This document shows positions 14,731 to 48,231 of a stretch of DNA of 64,000 bases, piece after piece. Below the pieces are notes generated by a model. That model did no database searches. It saw only the letters and a list, made by a program, of their open reading frames with translations, and had not been told where the DNA came from. The stretch is taken from positions 1 to 64,000 of IMG/VR virus record IMGVR_UViG_3300009873_000008; one strand, given 5' to 3'. A program made the position numbers and the translations under genes. This DNA comes from a virus. Its lineage: Duplodnaviria > Caudoviricetes. The first letter of the stretch is position 1; each line of letters starts with the position of its first letter.

Positions 14731-15060
14731 GTGACACCCGAAGAGCGCACGCCTGAGTGGATGGCCGATGCCATCATGGTTGTGCTGCGCAAAGAACCCA
14801 ATCTGACCGAGCGGTTCGGGATCCGCACGTTGGTCCTGGCTCTCCTCAAGGGCGAGGCGGACATTGAAGAGCGCCCGTGCAGGAAGACCAACGCCTGGGA
14901 CCGCGACCACCTCTGCGGATTCGGTGGCGCACCTGGGAAAGTCAGAGTGACGTGCGAGCGCAGCGGCGGACTCCTCTACGACGAGATCCGAGACTGCGAG
15001 ACGTGCCGGGGCACCGGCACAGAGCGCCGACTCAAGTACCGCTACCAGGCGTACGATTGA
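14731..15060 (+). CDS. Hypothetical protein with a DnaJ-like Cys/Gly zinc motif
   Basis: C..C...C...CETCRGTG. Confidence 0.6.
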   Translation: MTPEERTPEWMADAIMVVLRKEPNLTERFGIRTLVLALLKGEADIEERPCRKTNAWDRDHLCGFGGAPGKVRVTCERSGGLLYDEIRDCETCRGTGTERRLKYRYQAYD

Positions 15061-15451
15061 GTTCAGCGATTGAGCCGACCAGGTCGACCACTGGCCACAC
15101 GATCACGAATCGCGGTGTCTCGTCTCCGTAGTCCCGCACTACAGCGTGAGCGAGGAGCAAGTTCTCGCGCTCGTTACGGGCTCTCGCCAACGCAATCGCA
15201 TCGTCGATCGAAGCGAAGCGCGTCGCTTGGTCGAACTCGGTAGTCGCGATCGAGTCGGCACGACGGAGCGGACCATCGCGAAGAGTCCAGCCGGCGAGCA
15301 GACGAACGTCACACTCACTTGAGATCTGCGCGGCCGGATCGAGGCGACAGACGAAACGATGCGAGAGGGCAAGGCTCAAACGAACCTCCCCTCTCAGCAC
15401 CTTGTCCCTGGGAATGTGAGGAAAGACGAGCAACAGGAACGGTCGGCTCAC
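15032..15451 (-). CDS. Hypothetical protein carrying the shared peptide tag (DLVGSIAELN)
   Basis: GTGA coupling to the HTH stop; tag at 15056-15085. Confidence 0.55.
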   Translation of the reverse strand: MSRPFLLLVFPHIPRDKVLRGEVRLSLALSHRFVCRLDPAAQISSECDVRLLAGWTLRDGPLRRADSIATTEFDQATRFASIDDAIALARARNERENLLLAHAVVRDYGDETPRFVIVWPVVDLVGSIAELNRTPGSGT

Positions 15452-15951
15452 GACAGCGCGCGACGCACCGCCGAGATCAGCGCAACCACCGACTCCTGGC
15501 TCTGCCCGAAGGCAGTGTTGCTGCCCACTGCCGCCGTCACGATCGCCGAGATCGCCGAGAGCCGCGCAGCCGACTCAACGCCGTTCGATCCGTCCAGCAC
15601 GGGGGTCGGCGCCGCGGCCGTTGCGGGTGCGAGCGCGGGACGACCGCGACGACCGCCACCGACACGGGGCTCGCGCGCGGGGCGTCTGAGCGCCGCGTTC
15701 TTGTCGTCGAGCAGCATCTCGGGCGGATCGCCAGCGATCAGATCCTTGATCCGCTGCTGGACCGACAGCATCGCGTTGGCGCGCCCACCTTGCCAGTTGT
15801 GCCAGGTGCTGTTGGTCACGCCGAGGAAGTGCGCGAGGCGCTTCTTCGGGATGCCGTACTTGGCCCGCCACGCGTCCAGGTCACCGAAGGTGACGCCGGT
15901 CCACTCCGGCTTCTTCTTGCTCTTGATGCTCAGTCGCTTCTTCTTGGCCAT
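15448..15951 (-). CDS. XRE-type helix-turn-helix protein
   Basis: WRAKYGIPKKRLAHFLGVTNSTWHNWQGG. Confidence 0.75.
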   Translation of the reverse strand: MAKKKRLSIKSKKKPEWTGVTFGDLDAWRAKYGIPKKRLAHFLGVTNSTWHNWQGGRANAMLSVQQRIKDLIAGDPPEMLLDDKNAALRRPAREPRVGGGRRGRPALAPATAAAPTPVLDGSNGVESAARLSAISAIVTAAVGSNTAFGQSQESVVALISAVRRALS

Positions 15952-15984
15952 CGGGTCCTCGCTTCCGCGTCCTCACTGCGGGTT

Positions 15985-16467
15985 CTACCCTCGCGCGGAT
16001 CGAGTCGATGAGCCTTTCCGCTTCTTCTTGTCGAGGGCACCGATCGTGTCGACGACAGAGACATTCAGCCAACGGGAGAGAGCGCTGAGTCGAGCGTAGA
16101 ACGCTTCGTGAGTCGTCGTTGACATGGCCCCCCGAAAGGGCCTCCGTTGTTCCTGGTTGGCCGCTCGAATGAACTCGACGGCCTCGGCGACTCCGGGCAT
16201 CCCATCCGCCGGTTCGCGCGAGAAGGTAAGCCTGGCCTCGTCCCCTCGGGTAGCCACGTTGATGGCTCGACTGATCGTCTTGTGAATCAGTCCAAGCTGC
16301 TTGTAGCGCATCAGCACAGCGATCCCCGGCGTAACTGTAAAGCTGACAGCGATCGGATCGGATTGGATGGCCGCCTTCCGCTTCAAGGTTCCTCCGTAAT
16401 TGTCCGCTATGTAAGAACTAAGCGAGTCCAGCTGCTCAGGACCGGTGTCGCTCAAGCCACCGCTCAA
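15985..16467 (-). CDS. Hypothetical protein, paralog of 17140..17484, tagged (SVVDTIGALD)
   Basis: Shared SDPxxVSFT, RLTFSR and RWLN...IGAxDKK; start uncertain. Confidence 0.6.
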   Translation of the reverse strand: MSGGLSDTGPEQLDSLSSYIADNYGGTLKRKAAIQSDPIAVSFTVTPGIAVLMRYKQLGLIHKTISRAINVATRGDEARLTFSREPADGMPGVAEAVEFIRAANQEQRRPFRGAMSTTTHEAFYARLSALSRWLNVSVVDTIGALDKKKRKGSSTRSARG

Positions 16468-16660
16468 GCCGGATGAGCAGCCGCCTGGCCTGTCTTACCA
16501 GGCTCTCGACCGCCTCGTCGTCCTCGGCCAAGTGGGCGCGGCCGATCTCGTGAGCGAGCCAGTCGGGCAACAGCAGCCAGTGGGACATGCAGAAGAGCCG
16601 CGGGCGCAACACCTGCGCCTCGCAGCCCTCGGCGCAGCAGTCTTCGACGACACCGCCCAT
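16436..16660 (-). CDS. Small zinc-binding-like phage protein
   Basis: C.AEGC......LFC.SHW..LP pattern. Confidence 0.55.
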   Translation of the reverse strand: MGGVVEDCCAEGCEAQVLRPRLFCMSHWLLLPDWLAHEIGRAHLAEDDEAVESLVRQARRLLIRLERWLERHRS

Positions 16661-16891
16661 CCGTATACGTTGCCCCACGGCCGTCCAATCACTCCAATGA
16701 AAACAGCGGCGGTGGTAGCTAGACTGGAGACGGTCAGCGAGGTGTGCGCCTACCGTTTTCCCCACTTTCCCCCTTTATTCGGTTGGAGCCTCTGTAGCTG
16801 ATCCCGGGCGATCGTCTTTGAGCTTTGATTACCCCAACCTAGACTAACGGACGATCACTCCCTCGCTGTGTTGGCGAGGAGCCCGGTTTGG

Positions 16892-17143: not shown

Positions 17144-17484
17144 GAGTTTTCCTTCTTGTCCATGGCGCCGATGATCGAGACAGCGTCGTAGTTCAGCCAC
17201 CGCCTGATCGCCCACGCGCGGCGCGAGAACCCCTGACGAGTTGCCGGACTGATCCTACGCGCTTTGTCCTCACTACAGATGCGCAGGAAGGGGAGCAAGC
17301 TCTCCGCGTCTGCCACATCGAGATACCCCGGCAGCCTTGAGAAAGTCAGGCGGCCCGAGTCGTCCAGCATGGCTCGAATGGTCTGCCTCCATTCGGTCTT
17401 GGTCACGTCCTTCATGGACAACATCAGCGTAGCCCGCATCACGTCAGACAGCGTGAAGGACACCGTAACTGGATCGCTGCTCAT
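17140..17484 (-). CDS. Hypothetical protein, paralog of 15985..16467, tagged (DAVSIIGAMD)
   Basis: GGAGG RBS; TAGGAC motif 24 nt upstream. Confidence 0.7.
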   Translation of the reverse strand: MSSDPVTVSFTLSDVMRATLMLSMKDVTKTEWRQTIRAMLDDSGRLTFSRLPGYLDVADAESLLPFLRICSEDKARRISPATRQGFSRRAWAIRRWLNYDAVSIIGAMDKKENS

Positions 17485-17508
17485 CGACCTCCGTCTGGCC
17501 ACGACTCA

Positions 17509-17532: not shown

Positions 17533-18099
17533 GTGAATCCGACGCTGATCGAACAGAACGACGAGCCCTGGCTGCTCCTGGGGCTCGATACACGGTTCGA
17601 GACCGACGTGAAGCCCACCGGGATGTTCCTTGGCCTCTCGGGCCGCATCGTCATAGCCGACACCGGTTCGGACCTGATCGCCAGCGTAGCGAGCCTGGAC
17701 AGCGACCCCGACAAGCTGCTGCGCTTTCCGGTTGTGGTCTCGACCTACCGATCCAGACAGGTCGATATGTGGGTGTGCCACATGACTCACGCCCGGCGTC
17801 AGCGGTTCGGTGGTGCGTTTGACCTCCTACGGTTCTCGGGCTACGACTGGGCTCCGGCGAGCATGGTTCGCGGTGTCGGAGCCGATGCCGCCGAAGCGAC
17901 GCGCAGCTACATCCGCCAGATCGCCGGCTACAACACCGGTCAGTCGTGGCAGATCGTCCCGCTGATCGTCGCCGCGGCCGAAGGTGACGGACGTCCCGGG
18001 CCCCGCGTCCTCGAACGCGCGCTAGCGTGTTTCCTGAAGACAGGCCGCGTTACCGACATGACGCGCCGCTATTCCACGAAGTTCACGAGACCGCAGTGA
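17533..18099 (+). CDS. Hypothetical protein, four-member paralog family, internal tag (DLIASVASLD)
   Basis: GTG 6 nt after TATGAC; tag followed by RFP; late IVPL motif. Confidence 0.65.
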   Translation: MNPTLIEQNDEPWLLLGLDTRFETDVKPTGMFLGLSGRIVIADTGSDLIASVASLDSDPDKLLRFPVVVSTYRSRQVDMWVCHMTHARRQRFGGAFDLLRFSGYDWAPASMVRGVGADAAEATRSYIRQIAGYNTGQSWQIVPLIVAAAEGDGRPGPRVLERALACFLKTGRVTDMTRRYSTKFTRPQ

Positions 18100-18356: not shown

Positions 18357-18917
18357 GTGAGCGTGGAGCAGTTCGGGCTGTGGATCTACCGAGGTTACAA
18401 GCGCGGCGTGGTCAAGCTCGCGCTCTCGGTCAGGCACCGACACGGCTCGCATGACCTTCTGCTGTCCTCGGGCGTGCATCTCTCAGCCGTGCCGTCGAGT
18501 CGTCTCCACTCCCTGGCCAGTATCGACCGGTCGCTACCGATCGTCGAGTCAGTCGCGACGCTGAACTCGCTGCGCTTCCCGTTGCTCGTGAACTTCTGGG
18601 CATGCCGGTCCGACGTCGGTGTCGATTACGTCCGCGCTCAGGGCGGCGGGTGGTCCGTCGAGTTCGATGACGAGACCCCGCCCGAGATCGTAGTCTTCCG
18701 CAGTGGCGGTCTATCAGGCTGCTTCGACTACATCGACGGCGACTACCCCGACGAGGAGCGGGCGCGCTTGCGCGTCACCGCGGCGCTTCAGCAGCGAACA
18801 CCTGCGATCGGCGTTGAAGTAGTTCCGATCTTCGTTCGTGGACCCCACGGTGGACCGGAGAACATCGCTCAGTTGCGAGCAGACCTGGCAAAGTTCCGAG
18901 CGGGAGACCTCCAGTGA
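18357..18917 (+). CDS. Hypothetical protein, paralog family with 17533, internal tag (PIVESVATLN)
   Basis: Tag followed by RFP; late VVPIF motif. Confidence 0.65.
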   Translation: MSVEQFGLWIYRGYKRGVVKLALSVRHRHGSHDLLLSSGVHLSAVPSSRLHSLASIDRSLPIVESVATLNSLRFPLLVNFWACRSDVGVDYVRAQGGGWSVEFDDETPPEIVVFRSGGLSGCFDYIDGDYPDEERARLRVTAALQQRTPAIGVEVVPIFVRGPHGGPENIAQLRADLAKFRAGDLQ

Positions 18918-19261
18918 GACGGTCCACTGACGTCGAAGTCCTCCTTCCTCCCGACATCACGAAGTCGGTCATGGGGCTCATTCGGTCTGGCCGATTCGAG
19001 GCGTCGTGCGATCTGCGCGGTTTCCTCGGTCGACACCGTCACACCCACACGCCCGCACGCCTACGCTTCGTGTTCGGTCCGGCAACGCCCGACGCCTTCG
19101 GTCTGTCAGACGCCACGATGGTCAAGTCGGCTCTCGACGAACTCGGGCGCCTGCCCACCGACTTCTCCTCGTTCGATCCCCGCGAAGTGCGATACCTGGC
19201 CGGCGAACTGAACAAGTGGCTCAGTCGGCCGCTCGTTGATGCGATCGGGGACTTGGCGTGA
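18914..19261 (+). CDS. Hypothetical protein with C-terminal tag (PLVDAIGDLA)
   Basis: GTGA coupling on both ends. Confidence 0.65.
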   Translation: MRRSTDVEVLLPPDITKSVMGLIRSGRFEASCDLRGFLGRHRHTHTPARLRFVFGPATPDAFGLSDATMVKSALDELGRLPTDFSSFDPREVRYLAGELNKWLSRPLVDAIGDLA

Positions 19262-19635
19262 GCACCTACCTCGTTGTGCGCGTGCGGCTCTCTGCGCGGC
19301 AGCTTGAGCGGCTGCTCCTCTGCGGCGACGAGTCGCAGATTCTCCGCCGCGTCTGTGAGAAGACGACTGGCTTCCTGAACTACTACGCCCGGTGGACCAA
19401 CAAACACGCTGGTGCGTTTCCTTACCCGTCATCACAGATGGCGATGGCTGACGCAGTCCTCGACAAGCCGCGAGGCCGAAAGGTGGTCGTTCAACTACAA
19501 GACGCGCCCTCTTCCGTTCAGCGTCGCAGAACGCTCGGCACAGTGCTCGGCACCACGGACGAACCGCTTCGAGTGGCGCGAATCGCGTGGCCGATCGGGA
19601 CGCTCGTCGAGTCGATAGGTCGTCTGAATGGCTGA
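19258..19635 (+). CDS. Hypothetical protein with C-terminal tag (TLVESIGRLN)
   Basis: Coupled ORF, 125 aa. Confidence 0.65.
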   Translation: MSTYLVVRVRLSARQLERLLLCGDESQILRRVCEKTTGFLNYYARWTNKHAGAFPYPSSQMAMADAVLDKPRGRKVVVQLQDAPSSVQRRRTLGTVLGTTDEPLRVARIAWPIGTLVESIGRLNG

Positions 19636-20567: not shown

Positions 20568-20672
20568 GTTCTCGTTCTACCCACGTCAGTACGTGCATCG
20601 CTTCGCGTCTACAGGAAGGCGTGAAGCGCGTCGTAGATAGTGGCAGGACTCCGAATGGTAGCGGGAGATTCT

Positions 20673-20915
20673 ATGAGCACTGACGTTCTGGGACCCGGAG
20701 CGCTCGTCAGAACAGCCTACGGTATGACCCGTTATGGACGAATCCTCCAGATCGATCCTCGGCCTGCTAGCTCCGACGCACGATGGGAGGCAGTGGTGTT
20801 CTGGCGCGACGCGAAAGATCCGCAGTCCGTTAGCGCGTACGTGTTGTCGGCCGACGTACCCATCATAGAACGGTTAGCGCTCATGGGCTGGCTATCGGAA
20901 TTGGACGCGGCATAG
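20673..20915 (+). CDS. Small SH3/KOW-like beta-barrel protein with tag (PIIERLALMG)
   Basis: PGALVR...GRIL...VVFW pattern; GGGAG RBS. Confidence 0.55.
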   Translation: MSTDVLGPGALVRTAYGMTRYGRILQIDPRPASSDARWEAVVFWRDAKDPQSVSAYVLSADVPIIERLALMGWLSELDAA

Positions 20916-21910: not shown

Positions 21911-22563
21911 AGGCGCCCCAGCAGTGGTACGACGCCTGGACCGATGCTGACGGCTCCGAGACGCTGCGCGACGAGTGGGAAACCTGGACCAGCCAGGCTG
22001 ACCTGGTCGATCCCGCTGAGATCGACGTCAACACCCTACGTTGGTCGCCGCCCGTGTCGGTGCTCGTCAACGAAGTTCCCGAGCAGATCGTCCGCATCGT
22101 TCACGTCAGCCCGAAGCAACGACGCGGCAAGAAGCTCATCAAGGTGGTGAACTTCGCCGGCATCTCGACCGTGCTCGATACGGACGTGGTCCAGCCGGTG
22201 TCAGTGGTCGACGCGATCAGCTTCCTGGATGACGCCGCTCTGTGGTGGCAGATCATCCGTGGTGAGCGCGCCGAGCGGCAACATCTCGACGAAGTCAACC
22301 AGGACTTGGCGGTGGGCAGCCCCGTCAAGATCCTGGGGCCCCAGGGCACCGCCCAGGAGAGTCTCAGGCTCTGGGCTAGCCACCTCACCAAGCCGCCCGA
22401 GAGCCTCCTGGCGGACCTCTCAGAGCGCGAGACAGGGCTCTGGCAGCACGCGCTGACAGGCCGAGTGGTCCGACCGCCGCGGGACGTCGGAAGGCGCCTG
22501 CGCGTCCAGATCGACGGGGACGAGCCTGTATCCGTCGGGTGGTACTCGGTCAGACCGGCGTAA
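21907..22563 (+). CDS. Hypothetical protein with two SH3-like segments separated by the tag (SVVDAISFLD)
   Basis: GTGA coupling; VGSPVKI...GRVV...VQIDG second barrel. Confidence 0.6.
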   Translation: MKAPQQWYDAWTDADGSETLRDEWETWTSQADLVDPAEIDVNTLRWSPPVSVLVNEVPEQIVRIVHVSPKQRRGKKLIKVVNFAGISTVLDTDVVQPVSVVDAISFLDDAALWWQIIRGERAERQHLDEVNQDLAVGSPVKILGPQGTAQESLRLWASHLTKPPESLLADLSERETGLWQHALTGRVVRPPRDVGRRLRVQIDGDEPVSVGWYSVRPA

Positions 22564-22614: not shown

Positions 22615-22625
22615 GGGAGGAGCAC

Positions 22626-22967
22626 ATGCGAGTCGACGTGACCTTCGACCGGGACGAGCCGACCCTGATCGAGCAGATCGGCGAGTTGTCGCTCGCCGAC
22701 GGCGAGGAACCCGAGACCCGCTGGGCTCTCTCGGTCGAAGTGAAGTGCTTCGGCCGGGACACTCCCGGAACCTACTGGCAGCCGCCCGAGTCGATGGAGA
22801 TCGACCCGGTTCGCGCCTTCCGCGAGACACTCGACGAGGAAGGGCGCCCCCGCGACGTCGAGTTCGACCTGAGCAAGCTCTCCAGTGCTGAGTACGATCG
22901 CATGATCGACGCTCTGTACGAGAGCGTGCGCGAGCAGCGTTACGACGACTGCTACGGGGACAACTGA
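22626..22967 (+). CDS. Hypothetical acidic protein with N-terminal tag (TLIEQIGELS)
   Basis: GGAGGAG RBS. Confidence 0.7.
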   Translation: MRVDVTFDRDEPTLIEQIGELSLADGEEPETRWALSVEVKCFGRDTPGTYWQPPESMEIDPVRAFRETLDEEGRPRDVEFDLSKLSSAEYDRMIDALYESVREQRYDDCYGDN

Positions 22968-23162: not shown

Positions 23163-23656
23163 ACGTGCGTCTGGTCGAAACAGAACCCGGCCGCCGCTAC
23201 ATCGCCGTCGATCGACCGCAATCGACATTGCTTCTGGCCCCCAACTGCACCGCTGACATCATCGTGGGCAGCGGTCGGGTCGGCTTCGAGTGCGGCTTGG
23301 TCGATCTGATCGGCGCGATCGACCAGCCGTTCCGAATGCCACTCCCGTGCATGGTCTACGCCGATGCCAGGCGCCGGGAATCGCATCGATACGTTTGTCG
23401 GATCAACCGCTGGTTCAATCGGGCCGGCGAGTTCACCATCTACTCCGATGACCGGCTCGGCAAACTGCACTTCGGAGAGAGCTTCAACGCAGTCGTCAAG
23501 TGCGCACTTCACTATGCGCGCACCGATCTGCAACCACTCGGAGTCACGTGGGAAGCAGTGCCCTTCTGGCGATCTAGTCGAAACGACGAACACTGGTGCA
23601 AGAACGCGCTTCGTGAGTCTCTCCGCAAGCGGCAGTTCGAGGTGCCGCGGTGGTGA
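23159..23656 (+). CDS. Hypothetical protein, paralog family with 17533, internal tag (GLVDLIGAID)
   Basis: GTGA coupling; tag followed by RMP; AVPFW late motif. Confidence 0.6.
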   Translation: MNVRLVETEPGRRYIAVDRPQSTLLLAPNCTADIIVGSGRVGFECGLVDLIGAIDQPFRMPLPCMVYADARRRESHRYVCRINRWFNRAGEFTIYSDDRLGKLHFGESFNAVVKCALHYARTDLQPLGVTWEAVPFWRSSRNDEHWCKNALRESLRKRQFEVPRW

Positions 23657-24219
23657 AAGCAGCGCGACCCCGCCTGGTGCTCTACAACCACCCGGATCCC
23701 CTCGCGCCGAAGCCGGAGCGTCGGGCCGAGCAACTAGCGCTTCTCTTGGGCCAACGGACTGATCGGAGCTTCATCGACTTCTATTCCGTACTGCTGCCGA
23801 ACGGTCACATCATTCAAGCGAGACAGTGGCAGTTCCTGGAGCTAGACGTAGTATCCCGAGTGGGAGCGCTTAACGATTACGACGCGCGCCCCGTGTTTCC
23901 TCTGTTCGGCTACTTGTACTGGGACTCTGGTCGCCAGGTGTGCCGGGTGCGTTACTGTCCGGCTTGGGACTACAGCTACCTGTGCGATCTGCCGTTCTCG
24001 CGCTTGCCGTCAGCCTTGGCCAGACCGGCCTACGCTGTAGCGCGAGGCAACCGCTCCGCTGAAAAAGTCTGGGTCGAACGCGTCAAAAAGCACTACCGTT
24101 CTTCCGACTTCCAGGTCGTACCGATTGTCGTCGGACGCAACAGCGTCGAAGAGTTCCGAACTCAGACTGAGCGTCTCGGGCTGCCGCTCCGAACCATAAG
24201 AGTTCCGAACTCAGACTGA
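23653..24219 (+). CDS. Hypothetical protein, paralog family with 17533, internal tag (DVVSRVGALN)
   Basis: GTGA coupling; VVPIV late motif. Confidence 0.6.
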   Translation: MKAARPRLVLYNHPDPLAPKPERRAEQLALLLGQRTDRSFIDFYSVLLPNGHIIQARQWQFLELDVVSRVGALNDYDARPVFPLFGYLYWDSGRQVCRVRYCPAWDYSYLCDLPFSRLPSALARPAYAVARGNRSAEKVWVERVKKHYRSSDFQVVPIVVGRNSVEEFRTQTERLGLPLRTIRVPNSD

Positions 24220-24221: not shown

Positions 24222-24227
24222 AAGATC

Positions 24228-24416: not shown

Positions 24417-24438
24417 GATCGAACAGGATCAAGCAGCC

Positions 24439-25353: not shown

Positions 25354-25930
25354 CCAAACACTCAGGATGGCGACCAACTAACGGTCGCACCACATTTCTC
25401 CACTCGCTCAGTTGCTGTCGGTTCTTGGGTCGGAACACGTGAGCCCGCGAGATCGTCTCGCCGATCATGACCACTGGTTTGAACTCGACGAACCCAAGTT
25501 TGTGGACACGACCGATCCGCTCCCAGCGCTTGGTGAATGTCTCCCATGCGTTGCGGATGGCAGTTATCGGATCGAGATCGTTGACGAGCACCGAGAACAG
25601 TAGCTCACTCCGACGTCTGCCCATCGCCGCCGTCCAGATGCCGACGCGTGTGGTCTTGATCCGATCTCTCGTGCAGACCGGACTCACCATTACCGGCAAC
25701 ATCAGTTCGAGACGCTCCATCGAGCCGACCATCGCTACCAGATCTGGCTTGAGCAGATTTTTGGCGGTGACGTACTTGACAGCCCTGCTGGTGAGCACCA
25801 CGAAAACGGAGCGCGCCGGATTGATTCCCACCACCAGTCCGTATCGATCCGGGATCCGGGGTTTACCGTCGTCCTGCGGCTCGTGGTGAACGAGTACGAT
25901 GTCGCCCAGCGCCGGGCTCTCTTGCGTCAC
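25328..25930 (-). CDS. Hypothetical protein with an N-terminal SH3/KOW-like segment
   Basis: GTGA coupling; LGDIVLV...YGLVVG. Confidence 0.55.
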   Translation of the reverse strand: MTQESPALGDIVLVHHEPQDDGKPRIPDRYGLVVGINPARSVFVVLTSRAVKYVTAKNLLKPDLVAMVGSMERLELMLPVMVSPVCTRDRIKTTRVGIWTAAMGRRRSELLFSVLVNDLDPITAIRNAWETFTKRWERIGRVHKLGFVEFKPVVMIGETISRAHVFRPKNRQQLSEWRNVVRPLVGRHPECLDGRTTPTA

Positions 25931-29147: not shown

Positions 29148-29560
29148 TCGGATTCCTCCTCCTCCAAGGCCCCGATCTGGGTTACCAGGTCGGTCGGCCA
29201 GTAGGTGTTGCTGATGGATACCGCACCCGTGACGTGGCGCACGCGACCGGGAACAGTGCCAGTGGGATCTTGGTGAAGGAAGCCACGCGCAGTGAGACTG
29301 TCGAGCACCGGACGCAAGAACTTGACTCGCGCGTAGAACTCGCGTTTCCTCTCTTCGTCCGAGAGCGCCGAGCGGCTCAGGATGAAGACCCACTCTTTGC
29401 CGTGCGAGATTCCTTGCGGGTAATCGGCCCAGACGCGCTCAGCGATCTCGTGGCTCAGCAGATCCGTCTGATGCGCGCCGCCGTTGTCGTACGCAGCCGA
29501 GATCTCGCGCACTAGGCGCAGGACTACTCGCTCAAGCTGGGTGAGTCGCTCACTTGCCAC
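29144..29560 (-). CDS. Hypothetical winged-helix-like protein with C-terminal tag (DLVTQIGALE)
   Basis: LRPVLDSLTARGFL pattern; coupled ORF. Confidence 0.6.
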   Translation of the reverse strand: MASERLTQLERVVLRLVREISAAYDNGGAHQTDLLSHEIAERVWADYPQGISHGKEWVFILSRSALSDEERKREFYARVKFLRPVLDSLTARGFLHQDPTGTVPGRVRHVTGAVSISNTYWPTDLVTQIGALEEEESE

Positions 29561-30032: not shown

Positions 30033-30322
30033 GCCGCGTCCAGCGAGCCGATCAGCGAGATGATGTCGACCTCCAGGGTGTAGCCCTTGCGCTGCTTCTC
30101 GATGGCCATCTTCCGAGCGGCCTGCTGCGCGTGCTGGGGGCTCGCGAAGTCCTCGCGCATGGTCTGCCCCCGCGTGCCGATCTTGCCCCAGCGGCGCACG
30201 AAGGTGCTGCCCCACACCTCGGCCTGCCAGAACTTCATGGACTCGCCGGACTGGTTCTGCGCGTTGGCACCCACGAACTCCAGTCGCATCTTGAAGTCGG
30301 GTTCGCGCTTGGTGGGGATCAT
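30029..30322 (-). CDS. WGR-domain protein with C-terminal tag (DIISLIGSLD)
   Basis: KFW....GS.FVRRWGKIGTRGQ...F.....A...A.K...EK.RKGY. Confidence 0.85.
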   Translation of the reverse strand: MIPTKREPDFKMRLEFVGANAQNQSGESMKFWQAEVWGSTFVRRWGKIGTRGQTMREDFASPQHAQQAARKMAIEKQRKGYTLEVDIISLIGSLDAA

Positions 30323-30867: not shown

Positions 30868-31304
30868 ACCTTCGCGCCCACCGGCGCGTGTTCGTTGTTG
30901 TTGTTGTCGTCCAGCTTTCCGATCCGCTCGACGATCGACGCGCCCCGGTAAAGCAGGCCGTTTTCCTTGAGCACCTGTTCGACGTAGGCCAGCCGAAACT
31001 CAGGAAACGGACCGATCTTGATCGGCCGGCTGGAAATCGCGTCGATCGCTTCCTTCGCCTCTTTCAGGTTGAGACCGAGCAGTTCCCGGATCGCCTTGAT
31101 CGGAGGGATCGGCGAACCCGGACCGCGACCGTAGATCGTGAGCACCACCATGCCGTAGGTCGTCTCGTCGAACCTGGTCATGCCATTGAGCATGGCGACC
31201 AGCCCCGCGGCCTCTCGTTGGGTCACCTGCCACGTCCCGGCACCCCGGATCGCGACTTCGACCTTGCGCTCGTCCATCTGGATCGGCTCGATCGGCTCGG
31301 TCAT
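30864..31304 (-). CDS. Protein with a ribosomal L7/L12 C-terminal-like domain and tag (SIVERIGKLD)
   Basis: IKAIRELLGLNLKEAKEAID; ATG 6 nt after GGGG-TAGGAC. Confidence 0.7.
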   Translation of the reverse strand: MTEPIEPIQMDERKVEVAIRGAGTWQVTQREAAGLVAMLNGMTRFDETTYGMVVLTIYGRGPGSPIPPIKAIRELLGLNLKEAKEAIDAISSRPIKIGPFPEFRLAYVEQVLKENGLLYRGASIVERIGKLDDNNNNEHAPVGAKV

Positions 31305-31677: not shown

Positions 31678-32151
31678 ATGACTACCGCGAAGCGCGACTA
31701 CCGAGAAGGCGATTGGGTCCGGTTCAGCGTTCCGAATTCGGAGGCGGTGGGCCAGATCTCGTCGGTGCAGACGCCGAATCTCGATTCGTGGGAGCGTGAC
31801 CCACTCTCACGCTCGCGTGACCGGCGCACTCACTACGTGGTCCGACAACCGAACGGCGAATGCACGCGGATCCCGGACCACATGGTGATCGGCGTTGCCG
31901 ACGTCGTGGCCGCAGTAGCGGCGCTCGCCATTCGGCCCCTCTCACTTCGCTTCCGGTTCCGGGTGCTCGGAGATCACGTTCACGCGACGTTGTTCGTGGG
32001 CAAACCGCACTTCACGCTCGCGAACTCCGGCAAGCTGGTCTTCCGCACCGACGAGTGGGGCAGTTTCGTCGCGGCCATGCAGTTGGTGGGACAGATCTCC
32101 CAGCAGGTCGACGTCGACTTCGTTTCCGAAGAAGTCGAGGTAGAGACATGA
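31678..32151 (+). CDS. Two-domain hypothetical protein: SH3-like barrel, tag (DVVAAVAALA), second domain
   Basis: EGDWVRF...GQI...YVV pattern; ATG 6 nt after GGGG-TAGAAC. Confidence 0.65.
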   Translation: MTTAKRDYREGDWVRFSVPNSEAVGQISSVQTPNLDSWERDPLSRSRDRRTHYVVRQPNGECTRIPDHMVIGVADVVAAVAALAIRPLSLRFRFRVLGDHVHATLFVGKPHFTLANSGKLVFRTDEWGSFVAAMQLVGQISQQVDVDFVSEEVEVET

Positions 32152-32798: not shown

Positions 32799-33115
32799 AT
32801 CTCGTCGAGCGCGGCAACAGCATCGACGATGTCGTCAATCGGCCAGACCTTCCGACCGTGAACACGATCCTCGTCAATCGACCAGACTGCTACCTTGGAG
32901 CAGTCTAGGCCGCGCTTGGCAGCAAGTCGTACCGCACGTTTCTGCGCCGCTAGCGGGGTCTCGAACACGTGCGCCTTCAAGATCGACGACGTGAACGTCC
33001 AGTGCCATCGGGAGTGTGCGCCGCGCGCTTTGTTGCCGCGGTGGGGCGCTCTGGCCAAGTAGTCGGCCGTGCTGTACCAGTCGCGCTCCTTGAGCAGCGC
33101 TGCGACGTATCTCAC
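32795..33115 (-). CDS. Hypothetical protein with C-terminal tag (DIVDAVAALD)
   Basis: GTGA coupling at 33115 (alternative start 33163). Confidence 0.55.
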   Translation of the reverse strand: MRYVAALLKERDWYSTADYLARAPHRGNKARGAHSRWHWTFTSSILKAHVFETPLAAQKRAVRLAAKRGLDCSKVAVWSIDEDRVHGRKVWPIDDIVDAVAALDEI

Positions 33116-33433: not shown

Positions 33434-33676
33434 TCAGGTGTTCAGGTCGGCCACTTGATCTACGATGTTCGTCATTGGCGTCCACTCACCGTCACCCTTC
33501 GGCCGAACCATCGGCACATGATCGCGTCTGATCCGCACGATGCCCAGTCCGTGGCACCAGGTGCATTTCGTGTCTGTGGCCAGCAGGTCGTTGACGCGGC
33601 GGTGCCGGGGGTTGAAGCACTCAACGATGAGATACCCGGACGAGTCGACGGACGAGTCCTCGGGCTTCTTGGTCAC
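33434..33676 (-). CDS. Small zinc-finger protein with C-terminal tag (NIVDQVADLN)
   Basis: C......CTWCHGLG; GTG 6 nt after GGG-TAGAAC. Confidence 0.65.
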   Translation of the reverse strand: MTKKPEDSSVDSSGYLIVECFNPRHRRVNDLLATDTKCTWCHGLGIVRIRRDHVPMVRPKGDGEWTPMTNIVDQVADLNT

Positions 33677-34393: not shown

Positions 34394-34910
34394 GGGCGGC
34401 GCGCGGCTGGGTCTCCCCGATCTCGTCCTGCGCCGCGTTCAGCATCTTCTGAACCCTGGCGAGCGTCTGGCGCAGGACGAGATTCTCCTGGTGGGCTACC
34501 GCCAGGGCTTCGCGCAACTGGTCACCTTCGGAGAGACGGCCGACCTTCTCGACGATGTTCAGGTCGGTCGCCTCTTTCCGTCTACCGCGCAACTCGTACC
34601 CGAGCCGCTTGAGGACAATTCGCAGTACATCACGTTCGTCTGAGGAACAAGAGTAGCGGCCCTGGTTGCTGGTCACCCCCAACACGGAAGCTCTATTGCC
34701 GCCAGCCATCAGGAGCGACACCGTGTCTGCGTGCGCAACCTGGATCACAGACGCGCTCCAGCCGATGTCGTTCCCGAACATCCGTTCTTTCGACGTGCCA
34801 GGCGGCCCGAAGCGGTTGATTGCCATCGCGACACGTTCGCCGAACTTGGCGTCCCGTTCGATCTCACCGAGCATGTCGTTCAACACCAAGATCACTGAGT
34901 AGTAGCCCAT
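34374..34910 (-). CDS. Hypothetical protein with internal tag (NIVEKVGRLS) and a coiled-coil tail
   Basis: ATG 6 nt after GGGG-TAGGAC. Confidence 0.7.
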   Translation of the reverse strand: MGYYSVILVLNDMLGEIERDAKFGERVAMAINRFGPPGTSKERMFGNDIGWSASVIQVAHADTVSLLMAGGNRASVLGVTSNQGRYSCSSDERDVLRIVLKRLGYELRGRRKEATDLNIVEKVGRLSEGDQLREALAVAHQENLVLRQTLARVQKMLNAAQDEIGETQPRAAPTESSD

Positions 34911-35432: not shown

Positions 35433-35792
35433 ATGGAGAAGGATCTCAGGCCGGGCGCGAAGGTCTTCTGGATTCCGAAGAGCGAGGCAGCGCAGCAACT
35501 GCTCCAACAGGGGGCTGGTGGCCTCAGCATCCAGATTCAGGGCTCGGTCGGAACCCGGGACAGCCTACCGGAAGACGTGAAGAAGCTGCTCGCCGAGGGC
35601 AAGGGCGTCCGTCGTCAGGGAGTCGTCGACAAACTGATCGACGAGAACACCGTGCGCCTGATTCTGTGCGACACCTACGACCACGTGTGGGCGCACCCGA
35701 GCGAGGTGGAGCCGATCGACATGGTCACGCTGATTGCCGACATGGAGAACTCCAAGTCGATCGAGCAGCAGATGGCCGAGATGGACGACTAG
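35433..35792 (+). CDS. SH3-like protein with tag (DMVTLIADME)
   Basis: PGAKVFW...GVVDK...VR....VW..PSEVEP; GAGG RBS. Confidence 0.7.
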   Translation: MEKDLRPGAKVFWIPKSEAAQQLLQQGAGGLSIQIQGSVGTRDSLPEDVKKLLAEGKGVRRQGVVDKLIDENTVRLILCDTYDHVWAHPSEVEPIDMVTLIADMENSKSIEQQMAEMDD

Positions 35793-35795: not shown

Positions 35796-36374
35796 GTGCA
35801 TCCGTCGGAACCATACGACGTCTACTGGTTCTTCCGCCCGGACCTGCAACTCAGCGTCGTAGGGATCGTAATCGCTTCGCAACCTCATCGGGTCTACACC
35901 GGACTCCAACGCGAGCCCTTCGATCTTTTCCATCGCTCATTCTTGCTCGCGCCTTTCGACATCGTGGAGCGCGTGGGCCTTCTCAATAGGCACTGCTCGT
36001 TCTGCATAACTGGCGGTCGTCTGCGCGCCAGAGCGACGAAGGGCCACGACGAATACGGCAACCCACTGACAACCGAGTGGGACGGGTGGGAATGGTCCGA
36101 CGGGTCTGCTCGGCCGAGACCCGAATTGCCGATGTGCTGGTGCATGTTCTGGCAGATCGTCGGCGGCACGGCGTGCGCAAACGACTGCGTAGTGAAGTTC
36201 ATCAGTAAGACGAGCAGCACAAACGCGACCGACTTCCAATTCACCGAGCAGTCGGGAAGCCGTATCGCCAAAGGTCGTCCCCGTTCTCGCCAACGTCCAC
36301 TCTCTCGGGACGAGGCGGCGGCCCGGCGCCAGCGAAGTCAGATGCTGAGTCGTCGTCCGCCTCGGGCCCGGTAG
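35796..36374 (+). CDS. Hypothetical Cys-rich protein with internal tag (DIVERVGLLN)
   Basis: 3' end overlaps the convergent HTH gene by about 130 nt; 3' boundary uncertain. Confidence 0.5.
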   Translation: MHPSEPYDVYWFFRPDLQLSVVGIVIASQPHRVYTGLQREPFDLFHRSFLLAPFDIVERVGLLNRHCSFCITGGRLRARATKGHDEYGNPLTTEWDGWEWSDGSARPRPELPMCWCMFWQIVGGTACANDCVVKFISKTSSTNATDFQFTEQSGSRIAKGRPRSRQRPLSRDEAAARRQRSQMLSRRPPRAR

Positions 36375-36675
36375 CCACCACAGGCTTCGTAGTCGTAGCC
36401 TCGGGCTCGGGCTCGGGCTTCGAGTCGTCCGATTCGTCCGATTCGTCCGAGGCGCTCGGCGTCAACTTCGCGTTGTCGGGCAACTTCGCGTTGCAGATGA
36501 TCGCCAGAGTCTCTTCGGGTTTCATCGCGAGCACCTTCAAGAGCGCCGCGGCGACCGGGGGGATCTTCTGGCCATTTTCCCAACGTATTAGTGTGGCACG
36601 ATTTATGGAAAGTCGATCGGCCAGCTGCCTCTGGGTGAGCCCGGTACTTAGGCGAGCCCGCAGCGCCAGGTTCAC
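36241..36675 (-). CDS. XRE-type HTH protein with an acidic low-complexity tail
   Basis: RARLSTGLTQRQLADRLSINRATLIRWENGQ. Confidence 0.8.
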   Translation of the reverse strand: MNLALRARLSTGLTQRQLADRLSINRATLIRWENGQKIPPVAAALLKVLAMKPEETLAIICNAKLPDNAKLTPSASDESDESDDSKPEPEPEATTTKPVVATGPEADDDSASDFAGAGPPPRPERVDVGENGDDLWRYGFPTAR

Positions 36676-37025
36676 TCGATCGAGCCGATCTGATCGATGA
36701 TCGGAAAGTCGGGCGTGCGCGCGACGATCGGCTTCGCTCCGGGCGACTTGGGCACCAAGACGAAGTAGGACTCCTCGAACTCGTCCTCGCCCACGATCGC
36801 GTGATCGTGGATCTCCAGCAGCAGCCCGCGGCTGTCTGGATGCAGATAGAGACGACGCTCCCAGTAATCCTCGCCCGCGCTCCAGTTGATGCCCTCGATG
36901 CTGCTTTGGATCTCGGCGTGATTGAGACCATCCCCGAGGCGCTGCCGCCGGTAACGCGTCTCGCGCAGGTCGAGGAGCCGGAGCAGTTCGCGAATGTCGA
37001 GCGCTTGCGACTGATCGCCTGGCAT
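36672..37025 (-). CDS. Hypothetical protein with C-terminal tag (PIIDQIGSIE)
   Basis: ATG 37025 is 6 nt after GGG-TAGAAC. Confidence 0.65.
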   Translation of the reverse strand: MPGDQSQALDIRELLRLLDLRETRYRRQRLGDGLNHAEIQSSIEGINWSAGEDYWERRLYLHPDSRGLLLEIHDHAIVGEDEFEESYFVLVPKSPGAKPIVARTPDFPIIDQIGSIE

Positions 37026-37621: not shown

Positions 37622-38081
37622 GTCCAACCACCGTTCGCTGACGGCAGACGAAGTGTTCGACAAGTTGACCCAGGAGGCACAAGCGTCGGTGCCCCAGTAC
37701 CACGGTTCGGTGCAGGACAAGCTCGACGCGCTGGAACGGTTCGGCAACGCGACGCTCAAGCTGGTAGCTTCCATGCGCGGCGGGGACCACGACGCCAAGA
37801 TCGCGCGGTCGGCTAGCGAAGCGGCCGAGGCGGCCGATGGAGCAGCGGAGGCCATCTTGGCGCTGATCGACGCGATCAACGCAGCCAAGATCCAGCGAAA
37901 GCACCCGGGCACCGCCGGGGTGCCGGCGCTCGAAGCGCTGTACGATCAGGCGCAGACCCTCAGCAACAACCTGGCGAAGTACTCCCTCTACTTCGAGAAG
38001 CTGGTCCCCGGATTCGTCGAGCGAGTTGCCGATCTGGACAAGACACAGAGCGAGGAGGAGAGCAATGACCTCCCCTTCTGA
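37611..38081 (+). CDS. Hypothetical helical protein with near-terminal tag (GFVERVADLD)
   Basis: 156 aa, high GC3. Confidence 0.65.
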   Translation: MAGESNHRSLTADEVFDKLTQEAQASVPQYHGSVQDKLDALERFGNATLKLVASMRGGDHDAKIARSASEAAEAADGAAEAILALIDAINAAKIQRKHPGTAGVPALEALYDQAQTLSNNLAKYSLYFEKLVPGFVERVADLDKTQSEEESNDLPF

Positions 38082-42098: not shown

Positions 42099-42500
42099 TC
42101 ATCGGGTGTCCTCGGCTCCGTGCCGTTCAATGAGCTTCTTGACGACCACTTCGCGCAGAAGCAGCTTCTTGTGGTGGACATCGACGGTGCTCGGCTGGTG
42201 CTCATCGTCCAACGCTGCAATGCGATCCACGACCGTCACGCGTGCGTTGAGAAGATCCTCGGCCAGCGCCATGAACGACGGCTCGCGACTCTCGGACGCA
42301 AGCCGAGCGACCTCCATGGCAAGCAACCTGACCCCCATTGGGTATTCGTAGGCCCTTCGCAGATCGAGCGTGCTGGACGTGTCGTCCCAGGCGTGTTCGA
42401 TGACCGACCGGACCTGGGCCGGAAGGTTGACTTGCGCGGCAGGACGAACGAAGGTCAAGCGGAATCTTCTGGCCACCACCGAATCCAGTCGGAAGATCAC
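42099..42500 (-). CDS. Hypothetical protein with tag (TVVDRIAALD)
   Basis: Start uncertain; coding-like 3' two thirds. Confidence 0.5.
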   Translation of the reverse strand: MIFRLDSVVARRFRLTFVRPAAQVNLPAQVRSVIEHAWDDTSSTLDLRRAYEYPMGVRLLAMEVARLASESREPSFMALAEDLLNARVTVVDRIAALDDEHQPSTVDVHHKKLLLREVVVKKLIERHGAEDTR

Positions 42501-42522
42501 ATGGATAAGGTAGAACACGACC

Positions 42523-46589: not shown

Positions 46590-46606
46590 GCTTATCAGCG
46601 TAGCCA
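46583..46606 (-). promoter_or_regulatory. 10-bp hairpin (one G-U pair) covering the GTG start of the endonuclease
   Basis: TGGCTACGCT-GATA-AGCGTGGCCA on the minus strand. Confidence 0.5.
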
Positions 46607-46627
46607 GAGCTACTATCCTTTGCCAGC

Positions 46628-46801
46628 CTAGCCGGTGTAGTACTGGTCCATGAACTTGCCGGAGCCGACGCTTCGCACCCTCTCCAGATGGTCGTCCACG
46701 GACTGCGGACTGCGCGAGTAGAGCGCCTGGAGCATCGCCAGGTCTTCGGGGTTGGGCACGTCATGCCCGTCGAGCACTCGGATCTTGCGTGGCTTTGGCA
46801 T
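46628..46801 (-). pseudogene. thyX: Truncated thyX 5' fragment (57 aa)
   Basis: MPKPRKIRVLDGHDVPNPEDLAMLQALYSRSPQSVDDHLERVRSVGSGKFMDQYYTG-TAG aligns with the thyX N-terminus up to FYVG|YGH. Confidence 0.9.
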
Positions 46802-46844
46802 TCACTCTCTCCGCTTCTAGAAATCAGTCACAGGATGAGCACGG

Positions 46845-47783
46845 TCATGCAGGCGGCTTGGTCCTGCCTCGCTTGAGCGGCGCGGAGTGGGCGACACCCC
46901 CACGGTCGAAGTACCGCACCGGAAGCGGACTCATGGTATCGACGTCGATGACCAGATCATTGGGGTCGGGCCACGCGCTGTGATCGTCGCTCATGCGATT
47001 GAGGATCGGGTATCTCCGTCCGTTGATGAGCGCCACAACACGACGGGTGCGGAACTCGTCCGTGTGCAGCCGCGGACCAAGCGTGCGCTCCAATAGATCG
47101 TGGACGCACACTCCGAGTAGCCGCGAGAGCAGCGAGGCTCGCACGTGGGCGTTTCCAGACCAGTCGCCGATTCGTCGATAGTATCGACCGACGGTCAGCC
47201 CATCGCCTTCGAGATGCCCGATCTTGCTAATCAGATCGGGCGGAATCGGCTCTGAGCGCTGCTCGACCTGTCGAAAGCTGGCGCCAGATCGAGTGACCGT
47301 CAATACGATCCTCTGCGAGCCATCGACGTTGTAGTAGTGAGGGTGGTTCGTGCGAGCGACCCGGTCAACCGCGTCTTGATACTTGCGCCGCACGAACTCC
47401 AGGTGGGAATAGCAGTGCCATCTGAGTTGCTCGATCGACCGAACGTCCAACTTGTCGCGTCTGATGAGCAAGCCGTGCGCGTTTCGACGTTCCTCGGTAA
47501 AGAACGCGTACCACCGACCGACGGGCCGGCTCCACGAGTAGATCAGACCATCGTCGCCCAGCGTCTGGCCACGCTTCAACGGCCCACCGGTGGAGAGCGC
47601 ATAGGCACCGGGACGACCGGATAGGCCGGGAAAATCGGAAGCGCGGTAGCCGATGGGCGTCAGGCCGCGGGCAACGGGAAAGATCGGTACCCGCTGGGCG
47701 ATCTCACAGAGAGTCTGATACCTCGGCTCCGGCTTCTCCGATTCCTCGATCCTCGTCCTGCTCTGGACCTGCGCTAGTCTCAC
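46845..47783 (-). CDS. Hypothetical protein with internal tag (DLISKIGHLE)
   Basis: GTG 47783 is 6 nt after GGG-TAGAAC. Confidence 0.6.
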   Translation of the reverse strand: MRLAQVQSRTRIEESEKPEPRYQTLCEIAQRVPIFPVARGLTPIGYRASDFPGLSGRPGAYALSTGGPLKRGQTLGDDGLIYSWSRPVGRWYAFFTEERRNAHGLLIRRDKLDVRSIEQLRWHCYSHLEFVRRKYQDAVDRVARTNHPHYYNVDGSQRIVLTVTRSGASFRQVEQRSEPIPPDLISKIGHLEGDGLTVGRYYRRIGDWSGNAHVRASLLSRLLGVCVHDLLERTLGPRLHTDEFRTRRVVALINGRRYPILNRMSDDHSAWPDPNDLVIDVDTMSPLPVRYFDRGGVAHSAPLKRGRTKPPA

Positions 47784-48231
47784 CATCCGGTTCTACCCGA
47801 CCAAGCAGACCCAAGAGATCCACCGGCGGCTGTCTCATCCGACCTACTCGCTCGAAACCGTCTGGGGCGTTTGGATACACCAACCGGAATTGCCGGCAGA
47901 GGATCAGTCCGGTGATCTCGATTCGATCCGGTCCGACGATCTCGTGGAACAGCGCGAGTGCCTCCAGCAGGTTGTGGCACGATCCGTAGGGATGTTCGTC
48001 AGCGAGGTGATCGGCCACCTCTTCCAGATAGAAAGCGATGTCGTCTTGTCGGCGAGCGTCCGCGATGACGGGCAGATGCTCGCGCAGCGAAATGCAAAGT
48101 GGCTCGATAACCGGTCTGAGATCCCAGGACGCATTGACGGCCGCCGTGAGCATCCGCCGCCACGCGATGCACGTCTCCCAGTCAGGTTGATCGCCCTGCC
48201 TGGGCGCGTCGCGTCGATTGCCCCGCATCAT
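47704..48231 (-). CDS. Hypothetical protein with tag-like segment (DLLGLLGRVE)
   Basis: 175 aa; its 3' end overlaps the next promoter and gene. Confidence 0.5.
   Translation of the reverse strand: MMRGNRRDAPRQGDQPDWETCIAWRRMLTAAVNASWDLRPVIEPLCISLREHLPVIADARRQDDIAFYLEEVADHLADEHPYGSCHNLLEALALFHEIVGPDRIEITGLILCRQFRLVYPNAPDGFERVGRMRQPPVDLLGLLGRVEPDGETSAGPEQDEDRGIGEAGAEVSDSL

Follow-up and report, generated by a model that had tools for sequence, protein, structure and literature searches.

We describe a ten-residue peptide tag that is carried by many accessory proteins of an uncultured phage, as encoded in the window, i.e., the first 64 kb (positions 1 to 64,000) of the 72,943-bp IMG/VR viral contig IMGVR_UViG_3300009873_000008. 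The tag has the general form [S/D/T/N/P]-hydrophobic-hydrophobic-[D/E or S/T]-x-hydrophobic-[G/A]-x-hydrophobic-x, usually with a Pro ahead of it, and is present on about 24-25 of the 76 genes predicted between 15 and 48.3 kb. The motif is real, is selected at the protein level, is portable, lies outside the folds of the proteins that carry it (the carriers) and occurs throughout a clade of phages in genome-specific dialects. On a modest balance of probability, these sequence features point to a portable amphipathic helix, capped at its start, through which many accessory proteins would dock onto one receptor.

The source of the window is an uncultured jumbo phage with a T4-type capsid. The protein encoded at 1170-2618 (minus strand) is a T4 gp23-type major capsid protein, the top GenBank match of which (32% identity) belongs to an uncultured 595-kb phage, while the 590-aa protein encoded at 2625-4397 (minus strand) contains a Peptidase_S77 prohead-protease domain. 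The contig has a G+C content of 64% and a CheckV completeness of about 26%, from which a phage genome of roughly 280 kb was deduced; the contig thus covers about a quarter of that genome. Genes were called using a purpose-built codon-usage model that was trained iteratively, and gene numbers are therefore approximate. No match was obtained when 12 kb of the window was compared with GenBank phages by megablast, nor did single-protein scans of viral contigs with two carriers as queries yield a useful match. The capsid protein, when used as a query, retrieved 30 related viral contigs (61-90% identity), five of which (G001-G005) were fetched whole or nearly whole. A capsid scan of 185,579 genomes, run in search of the host, returned no relative.

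The initial annotation of the window had listed 27 copies of the peptide. Every one of them translates as written, with the correct coordinates and strand, and nearly all fall in the frame best supported as coding by the codon-usage gene caller. Two of the ORFs concerned were not called, of which 23650-24219 is backed by paralogy and 35796-36374 by a 63%-identical ortholog in the related contig L066. When the sites were re-scored with a position weight matrix (PWM) built from the strong sites, and their orthologs were checked, 23 were retained as strong and two as weak (20859 and 22201), and one site that had been missed was added (25715-25744, minus strand). The remaining two were rejected as tags, i.e., 33333, which had a leave-one-out (LOO) score of -10 bits and an ortholog that is not tag-like, and 47791, which scored -4 bits. 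The sites assigned to the window are as follows, each with its LOO score where one was obtained.

15056..15085, minus strand: tag in ORF 15032-15451; stop after 7 residues; 16.0 bits.
16030..16059, minus strand: tag in ORF 15985-16467, a paralog of 17140-17502; stop after 14 residues; 15.4 bits.
17158..17187, minus strand: tag in ORF 17140-17502; stop after 5 residues; 9.8 bits; tag kept in the paralog.
17671..17700, plus strand: internal tag in carrier 17533-18099, a member of the class-B paralog family according to the family alignment; 132 residues after it; 17.2 bits.
18537..18566, plus strand: internal tag in carrier 18357-18917, class-B family; 116 residues after it; 15.7 bits.
19229..19258, plus strand: tag ending at the stop of carrier 18914-19261; 17.8 bits.
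19600..19629, plus strand: tag in carrier 19258-19635; stop after 1 residue; 21.3 bits.
20859..20888, plus strand: weak, divergent tag candidate in ORF 20640-20915; stop after 8 residues; 3.5 bits; in L069, the homolog is tag-like at the corresponding position.
22201..22230, plus strand: weak, uncertain internal site in carrier 21907-22563; 8.1 bits.
22662..22691, plus strand: internal tag near the N-terminus of carrier 22605-22967; 91 residues after it; 17.5 bits.
23294..23323, plus strand: internal tag in carrier 23114/23159-23656, class-B family; 110 residues after it; 17.8 bits.
23845..23874, plus strand: internal tag in carrier 23650-24219, class-B family; 114 residues after it; 22.4 bits.
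25715..25744, minus strand: additional internal candidate, absent from the earlier list, in carrier 25328-25930; 12.8 bits (PWM score).
29162..29191, minus strand: tag in carrier 29144-29560; stop after 5 residues; 22.2 bits; kept in the L067/L068 ortholog.
30038..30067, minus strand: tag in the WGR-domain protein 30029-30322/30433; stop after 2 residues; 22.1 bits.
30909..30938, minus strand: tag in carrier 30864-31304, L7/L12 C-terminal-like (borderline); stop after 14 residues; 16.8 bits; kept in the L066 ortholog.
31900..31929, plus strand: internal tag in carrier 31678-32151; 73 residues after it; 13.4 bits; identical in the L066 ortholog.
32804..32833, minus strand: tag in carrier 32795-33163; stop after 2 residues; 22.3 bits; kept in the ortholog.
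33440..33469, minus strand: tag in carrier 33434-33676; stop after 1 residue; 22.4 bits; identical in the L066/L067 orthologs.
34530..34559, minus strand: tag in carrier 34374-34910; 51 residues after it; 16.1 bits; kept in the ortholog.
35718..35747, plus strand: tag in carrier 35433-35792; stop after 14 residues; 9.8 bits; identical in L066; the G001 ortholog has a diverged copy at this position.
35958..35987, plus strand: internal tag in carrier 35796-36374; 128 residues after it; 19.1 bits; ORF conserved in L066 at 63% identity.
36675..36704, minus strand: tag ending at the stop of carrier 36672-37031; 17.8 bits; kept in the ortholog.
38010..38039, plus strand: tag in carrier 37611-38081, followed by a 13-residue acidic tail with an aromatic end; 12.1 bits; kept in the ortholog.
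42207..42236, minus strand: tag in carrier 42099-42602; 35 residues after it; 20.9 bits.
47208..47237, minus strand: internal tag in carrier 46845-47786; 120 residues after it; 14.2 bits.

Scoring against shuffled proteins, a check that the initial annotation had itself proposed, placed these sites far above background. Using the LOO PWM, 18 of the listed sites reached at least 14 bits, as compared with 0.13 expected per shuffled proteome (maximum of two in 200 shuffles), and 21 reached at least 10 bits, as compared with 0.86. The window PWM gave one match in reversed sequences versus 23 in the real ones, and a six-frame scan of the entire 72.9-kb contig produced only a single match in a non-coding frame. 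The motif also emerged as the top word from a seed-free BLOSUM search of C-terminal 40-residue windows, by which it was recovered in all four genomes tested. The initial annotation had placed the peptide at the extreme C-terminus in many cases, or at a domain boundary; 13 of the 23 strong sites lie 0-14 residues ahead of the stop codon and the others are internal. The tag is missing from the virion, nucleotide-metabolism and other core genes of the window, as originally stated.

Within the window sites, information amounted to 0.70, 1.40 and 0.28 bits at codon positions 1, 2 and 3, respectively, with the flanks at about 0.18 bits. As information resides at positions 1 and 2, and position 3 is near the flank level, the constraint must act on the protein. 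The tags of G001 agreed with this, as their third codon positions held 0.00-0.37 bits relative to the codon-position background, Ser was encoded by both of its codon families (TCG, AGC) and Leu by several codons. The freedom of the wobble positions in both genomes upholds the earlier view that the repeat is one of protein rather than DNA. The notion of a translated nucleic-acid element, i.e., a terminator, promoter, recombination or nuclease site, for which one might cite the clustering of sites near gene ends on both strands, is refuted by this codon freedom and by the variable distance from tag to stop, such that we attach virtually no probability to it.

Every sampled relative was found to bear the tag, each in its own dialect, at a share of 14-33% of predicted genes in the four best sampled. 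G001 is complete (275,101 bp, with terminal repeats) and has virion and some core genes in common with the window, together with almost none of the accessory genes of 10-48 kb. Here, 134 sites were identified in 131 of approximately 411 predicted proteins, or about a third, and 119 of them scored at least 16 bits, as compared with 0.08 in shuffles; for 78 of the 134, the C-terminus is no more than 10 residues away. Thus, the tag is real, as the initial annotation had held, and its scale had been underestimated, given that it is clade-wide and marks about one third of the genes in a complete relative. The dialect of G001 is S-A-[VI]-[DE]-x-L-[GA]-x-[LVI]-[AV], which is also that of the approximately 58 sites of G002. 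G003 has 36 sites in a third dialect, while G004 (64% capsid identity; 89% complete) has 51 sites in a fourth, often flush with the stop codon, and G005 has 11 sites in the G004 dialect. In cross-scans, each PWM was almost insensitive to the other genomes; the G001 PWM detected 128 sites in G001 and none in the window's contig, and the window PWM detected 23 in the window's contig and one in G001. Position 6 is only ever I or V in the window and L or M in G001; a single base change would interconvert the two, and two ortholog pairs obey the rule of their own genome. The close syntenic relatives L066-L068, for which genes were called independently, kept the tags of the window's carriers, and orthologs between the window and G001, where present, had a diverged tag at the same place.

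The information of the motif was confined to its ten positions (about 20 bits in total) and was about zero outside, where the flanks showed only a weak bias toward hydrophobic residues at -3, toward Pro at -1/0 and toward either charge or Pro at +11. The choice of residue at position 1 is strictly coupled to that at position 4, in that S/T/N/P/G pairs with D/E, and D with S/T. These combinations occurred 85 and 32 times in G001 and the forbidden one not at all (Fisher 8e-24), with p=7e-5 for the window. At position 4 of the G001 tags, Asp outnumbered Glu by 69 to 27, and Ser/Thr took the place of the acidic residue whenever position 1 was Asp. Reciprocity of this kind is typical of the N-capping box of a helix. 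On a helix of two to three turns, the hydrophobic positions 2, 3, 6 and 9 share a single face with the Gly/Ala at 7. In an AlphaFold (AF2) model of the WGR carrier, the domain had pLDDT values of 86-92, and the tag was a helix with pLDDT<50 that did not pack onto the domain. As modeled, the tag is a discrete capped helix outside the carrier fold and not the end of a domain.

The carriers of the window are for the most part unrelated, as had been claimed, at least at the sensitivity of BLAST. All-against-all BLASTP linked a single pair (15985-16467 with 17140-17502), and alignment revealed one four-member family with an internal tag (class B; carriers 17533, 18357, 23114 and 23650); both are exceptions to the claim. 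A profile search of 5.8 billion proteins with the class-B family matched only its own contig, with none in G001-G005, and an AlphaFold model built from the four sequences (mean pLDDT 35) was not used. Of the domain labels originally given to the carriers, WGR was confirmed by Pfam (E=7.5e-16), the L7/L12 C-terminal-like match was borderline, being exactly at the cut-off (25.9 bits), and the SH3-like, zinc-finger and winged-helix labels were not confirmed by Pfam. When the tag was masked, 124 of the 131 G001 carriers were BLAST singletons. Pfam matches among 122 G001 carriers were few and scattered, and comprised HNH, a zinc-binding endonuclease loop, DUF6011, a phage zinc finger, DnaB_C/AAA_25, RNase H, SNase, HTH_3 and HTH_32.

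A search of the relatives for homologs with and without the tag, likewise proposed at the outset, found RNase H in both states. The G001 protein has a tag-bearing C-terminal extension that is absent from the orthologs of the window (37085-37621) and of G004. The portability that had been suggested is thereby sustained, both by these orthologs and by the unrelated folds on which the tag occurs. A tag-like match within the G004 RNase H was not counted, as it is a native helix of the fold. Motif matches were also found inside the family-A polymerase and the ResIII helicase of relatives; the match in the ResIII orthologs was not counted as a tag, as it may be a native helicase helix. Three tag-like sites (17.6, 27.2 and 19.3 bits) were detected among the first 290 residues of the G001 family-A DNA polymerase (L035:847-3639, 930 aa, with an intein), ahead of the polymerase domain, and one of them lies within a weak 3'-5' exonuclease match (residues 116-258). 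This N-terminal part might consist of small tagged modules joined by fusion.

Across 45 ortholog pairs between G001 and G002, the identity of the tag was 0.80, as compared with 0.62 for the rest of the protein, and the tag was the better conserved part in 41 of the 45 (Wilcoxon p=2e-10), which supports stronger selection on the tag than on the proteins that bear it. For the WGR carrier, the tag was kept in five of five database orthologs (52-76% identical) as well as in the G001 ortholog. Carrier genes themselves turn over fast, as a homolog in G004 was found for 8 of the 131 G001 carriers versus 67 of 280 non-carriers. They are predominantly small, such that the tag was present on 25 of 57 G001 proteins below 80 aa, on 56 of 122 of 80-120 aa (45% of all those under 120 aa) and on 2 of 28 above 500 aa. 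Some G001 proteins bear two or three tags.

Two further elements were noted next to tags. In at least seven G001 proteins (25086, 25861, 26499, 46396, 103592, 144341 and 158530; L034, L035, L038 and L040), the tag is directly followed by D-P-E-[IV]-x-x-R-V-x-x-W-D and then by 26-45 residues; this element may represent another module, one that accompanies the tag. In the window, the acidic tail of carrier 37611-38081 (plus strand) ends in D-L-P-F and resembles the tails of single-stranded-DNA-binding proteins (SSBs), with no Pfam SSB match.

Given that tags are uniform within a genome and differ between genomes by dialect, we infer one common reader of the tag, itself differing from genome to genome. 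A docking peptide is the simplest account of a motif that is discrete, capped, portable, better kept than its carriers, and uniform within genomes while different between them. In the mechanism that we propose, a lineage of uncultured jumbo phages with T4-type capsids would append the tag, mostly C-terminally, to a large share of its proteins, which would mainly be small, fast-turning-over accessory proteins along with a few nucleic-acid enzymes. The exposed hydrophobic face (positions 2, 3, 6 and 9, with the small residue at 7) would insert into a groove of a shared receptor, such that many unrelated proteins would converge on a single machine or location inside the infected cell. As to what lies at the other end, recruitment to a phage-specified intracellular site, or to a replication or expression hub, is a tentative suggestion that falls well short of even, and is preferred to packaging, degradation or clamp binding. 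Docking to a chaperone or AAA+ remodeler is a far less probable version, and we rate a degron or protease adaptor equally low. An ssrA-like degron acts through a free carboxylate at the extreme C-terminus, whereas tails of 0 to >14 residues follow the tag and about one fifth of the sites are internal.

Several points weigh against docking to a single receptor. Firstly, a comparison of the conserved non-carrier genes with Pfam, PHROGs and the ESM Atlas revealed no convincing reader, and the beta-clamp, the one attractive candidate (discussed below), was not found in G004 (89% complete, with some 50 tags), nor at the syntenic position of that genome. Secondly, the tag of the WGR protein in a G003-type genome keeps Ile at position 6, where that genome mostly has Leu, and the dialects could in part be founder effects of lineage-specific gene expansions. 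Thirdly, the helix starts 1-4 residues past the last strand of the domain, a linker shorter than that of most docking peptides. Finally, the gene calls are ad hoc, being those of our own caller.

The best placed of the alternatives, albeit an improbable one in our estimation, is that the motif is the last trace of one huge, fast-evolving paralogous family, in which the C-terminal helix is part of the fold and the dialects are founder effects. Carriers do occur in tandem arrays (the 15985/17140 pair and the class-B family of the window, and four tandem G001 genes at 153-154.5 kb), and many of the small G001 carriers resemble SH3/KOW-type barrels that start with G-D-R-V. The scarcity of G004 homologs (8 of 131) likewise fits lineage-specific turnover or expansion. 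A single family is difficult to reconcile, however, with a tag on unrelated Pfam folds (WGR, RNase H, HNH, SNase, HTH and zinc fingers), with RNase H orthologs that differ in its presence, and with the 124 carriers left as singletons once it is masked. Moreover, information drops to zero directly outside the ten residues, and the modeled helix is not packed on the WGR domain.

It is less probable still that the tags bind each other, i.e., that the peptide is an oligomerization helix which creates di- or multivalent domains or one assembly without a separate receptor. Small residues at 2, 7 and 10 of the G001 dialect would suit tight helix-helix packing, proteins with two or three tags would fit such a scheme, and the changes between dialects (position 2 from large to small, position 6 from beta-branched to Leu) could be mutually compensating where tag packs against tag. 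A helix of two to three turns would nevertheless offer a very small interface, and homo-oligomerization does not need, and selects against, one sequence shared by more than 100 proteins. A complex prediction for the WGR carrier with the L7/L12-like carrier scored 0.06 versus a mark of 0.32, and was counted as evidence neither way.

Two further alternatives are special cases of docking, and their small probabilities fall within its total. The first, to which we give little weight, is a peptide that binds a sliding clamp of DnaN type supplied by the phage or its host. A three-domain DnaN-type beta-clamp homolog is encoded in G001 and G002 beside initiator-, DnaC-, DnaB- and DnaG-like genes, and the annotated carriers are all nucleic-acid proteins, although most annotated non-structural phage proteins are nucleic-acid proteins regardless. 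The beta-clamp motif, the clamp-binding C-termini of T4 gp43, gp33 and gp55, and the C-terminal tail of SSB are short, often terminal peptides that bind a hub, and clamp clients typically have such peptides. Many different proteins plug into PCNA in this manner (PMC6881253), and the tag is likewise one short, often C-terminal peptide on many proteins. In contrast to these, it matches neither Q-L-[SD]-L-F nor the PIP-box consensus Q-x-x-[LIM]-x-x-[FY]-[FY], having no conserved Gln or aromatic pair and a different spacing, and its conformation is that of a capped helix, not of an extended peptide. Carriers also far outnumber any known phage clamp clientele, and a clamp was not found in all tag-bearing genomes, although a host clamp may act in its stead. 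As in G004, no beta-clamp was found in G003, G005 or G000, and no gp45-type clamp in the four genomes searched (G000, G001, G002 and G004).

The second special case, marginally less probable again, is a virion packaging or co-injection signal by which carriers would be loaded into the prohead. The nearest known system, by analogy, is the capsid targeting sequence (CTS) of the T-even internal proteins (IPI-III, Alt). The T4 CTS is N-terminal, is confined to a small number of head proteins and is cut off behind a Glu residue by the prohead protease. As with the tag, a peptide of approximately ten residues is the sole common element of diverse, fast-evolving accessory and counter-defence proteins that are addressed to one destination; the internal proteins of T-even phages are diverse and share only this short targeting sequence (PMC3012670). 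The phage has the corresponding T4 gp23-type capsid and Peptidase_S77 prohead protease. Unlike the CTS, the tag is C-terminal, with the 13 of 23 window sites within 14 residues of the end and 78 of 134 G001 sites within 10, or internal, and its position 4, though mostly acidic, is chiefly Asp or Ser/Thr rather than the Glu of T4-type protease sites (L/I-x-E). In place of a few head proteins, some one third of the proteome is tagged, replication-type enzymes included, with matches even inside a polymerase and a helicase. Of the three routes that the initial annotation had put forward, i.e., a hub protein, a protease adaptor, and packaging or co-injection, the last looks the least likely, because carriers lie in non-structural blocks with a promoter-like element of their own and, in relatives, include RNase H, HNH, SNase and DnaB_C/AAA_25 proteins.

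Cargo peptides of encapsulins and bacterial microcompartments (BMCs) invite a similar comparison, in that they are short, terminal and portable, are read by one shell protein and have a similar hydrophobic spacing; the I-G-x-L core of the window dialect recalls those of encapsulin cargo. The tag shares with BMC encapsulation peptides the character of a terminal amphipathic helix, as judged by the capping covariation, the 2/3/6/9 spacing and the AF2 helix. It differs in that such systems address a few enzymes, as compared with 131 carriers, and in its very short linker. No match to the BMC shell family PF00936 was obtained in G000-G004, while control genomes matched. No separate encapsulin operon was seen, without a dedicated encapsulin family search, and the sole HK97-type shell seen was the gp23-like capsid of the phage itself. 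If the tag is taken as an adaptor element, a functional analogy may also be drawn with poxvirus ankyrin-repeat proteins, which have a C-terminal, F-box-like PRANC module of approximately 50 residues with the host protein Skp1 as its receptor. There too, a large, fast-evolving set of viral proteins has one C-terminal docking element for a single hub; the PRANC module is, however, a domain of some 50 residues from a eukaryotic virus, and the tag comprises ten residues on unrelated folds.

Candidates for the reader of the putative docking helix were sought in the conserved core of the clade, which is not T4-like and includes a DnaB-type helicase, a DnaG-type primase, a DnaC-like loader, a family-A polymerase with an intein and a RecA-like protein, as well as a MoxR(CbbQ)-type ATPase with a CobT-like VWA protein, a methylase, MerR and, by eye, a gp32-like SSB. 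A reading in which the acidic position of the tag is bound by the MIDAS of the VWA protein was set aside, since the acidic residue shifts between positions 1 and 4 as part of the capping box, and MoxR-CobT-type pairs occur in many phages. No phage-encoded ClpP (PF00574) was found in the five genomes searched.

Some further genes were noted in G001. The region at 30.4-36.3 kb (L034:10393-16286) is a replication module of bacterial style, in a phage whose capsid is of the T4 type, and comprises two winged-helix initiator-like proteins, the beta-clamp, the DnaC-like loader, the DnaB-type helicase and the DnaG-type primase, with the family-A polymerase further on. The 261-aa protein at 39023-39808 (L034:19023-19808) has a C-x9-C-P-L-C zinc site and an acidic tail with an aromatic end, and looks like a gp32-type SSB, with no function assigned by Pfam or PHROGs. 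A 159-aa protein at 24153-24632 (L034:4153-4632) adjoins carriers and has an H-E-x-x-H metalloprotease-type motif without a family match; it is kept in G002 (88%) and G004 (40%).

Carriers are nearly absent from the structural genes, with the tag on only 2 of 62 genes in the structural block of G001 (200-260 kb). A GGGTAGAAC-like element was identified 0-8 nt upstream of start codons in the accessory, carrier-rich blocks of the window (about 9,900-48,700) and of G001. In G001 it was present in 17 of 59 upstream regions in carrier blocks versus 1 of 31 in the structural block, and in the window's contig in 14 of 87 upstream regions in accessory blocks versus 1 of 30 elsewhere. Structural genes had GGAG-type ribosome-binding sites in its place. 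Examples in the window lie upstream of the following genes.

10306-10962, minus strand: gene with the element upstream.
20103-20567, minus strand: gene with the element upstream.
31678-32151, plus strand: tag carrier with the element upstream.
33434-33676, minus strand: tag carrier with the element upstream.
36672-37031, minus strand: tag carrier with the element upstream.
46845-47786, minus strand: tag carrier with the element upstream.
48277-48624, minus strand: gene with the element upstream.

The element is probably a promoter for leaderless transcripts that is conserved across the clade. As it is found in carrier blocks and is rare among structural genes, the tagged genes seem to form a separate transcription class, which may be an early one.

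Two side observations were made in the window. A seed-free search of N-terminal 40-residue windows returned a word of the L-T-R-R-P-L-L-T-L-E type in four proteins, which ends like a T4-type prohead-protease site and may be a separate capsid-targeting propeptide. In addition, a 57-aa ORF (46628-46801, minus strand) matches part of the 459-aa protein encoded downstream at 44297-45676 (minus strand), i.e., residues 30-82, at 66% identity, and is therefore a duplicated gene fragment.

Literature searches found no published description of this tag. In nucleus-forming phages, bioinformatic searches found no linear import signal (PMC11087766), and a proteome-wide linear tag in another lineage of jumbo phages would represent a new type of phage cell biology. 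The fullest form of the proposal, which we offer tentatively and as less probable than docking as such, is that these phages possess a protein-sorting system of their own, in which a linear signal helix, transferable between proteins, would act with a receptor that evolves alongside it to collect about one third of the proteome, comprising the accessory proteins and some nucleic-acid enzymes, at one phage-specified place or machine. If this were true, no linear sorting signal would have been described for a bacterial virus before this one. The genes of large phages are for the most part small orphans without a functional clue, and in this clade one peptide marks 14-33% of the predicted genes. 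The tag offers a direct experimental handle on the reader and on the destination of more than 100 proteins of unknown function, could be used to direct foreign proteins in the course of an infection, and, as an aid to the annotation of metagenomic contigs from the clade, sets a class of accessory genes apart from those of the core and the virion.

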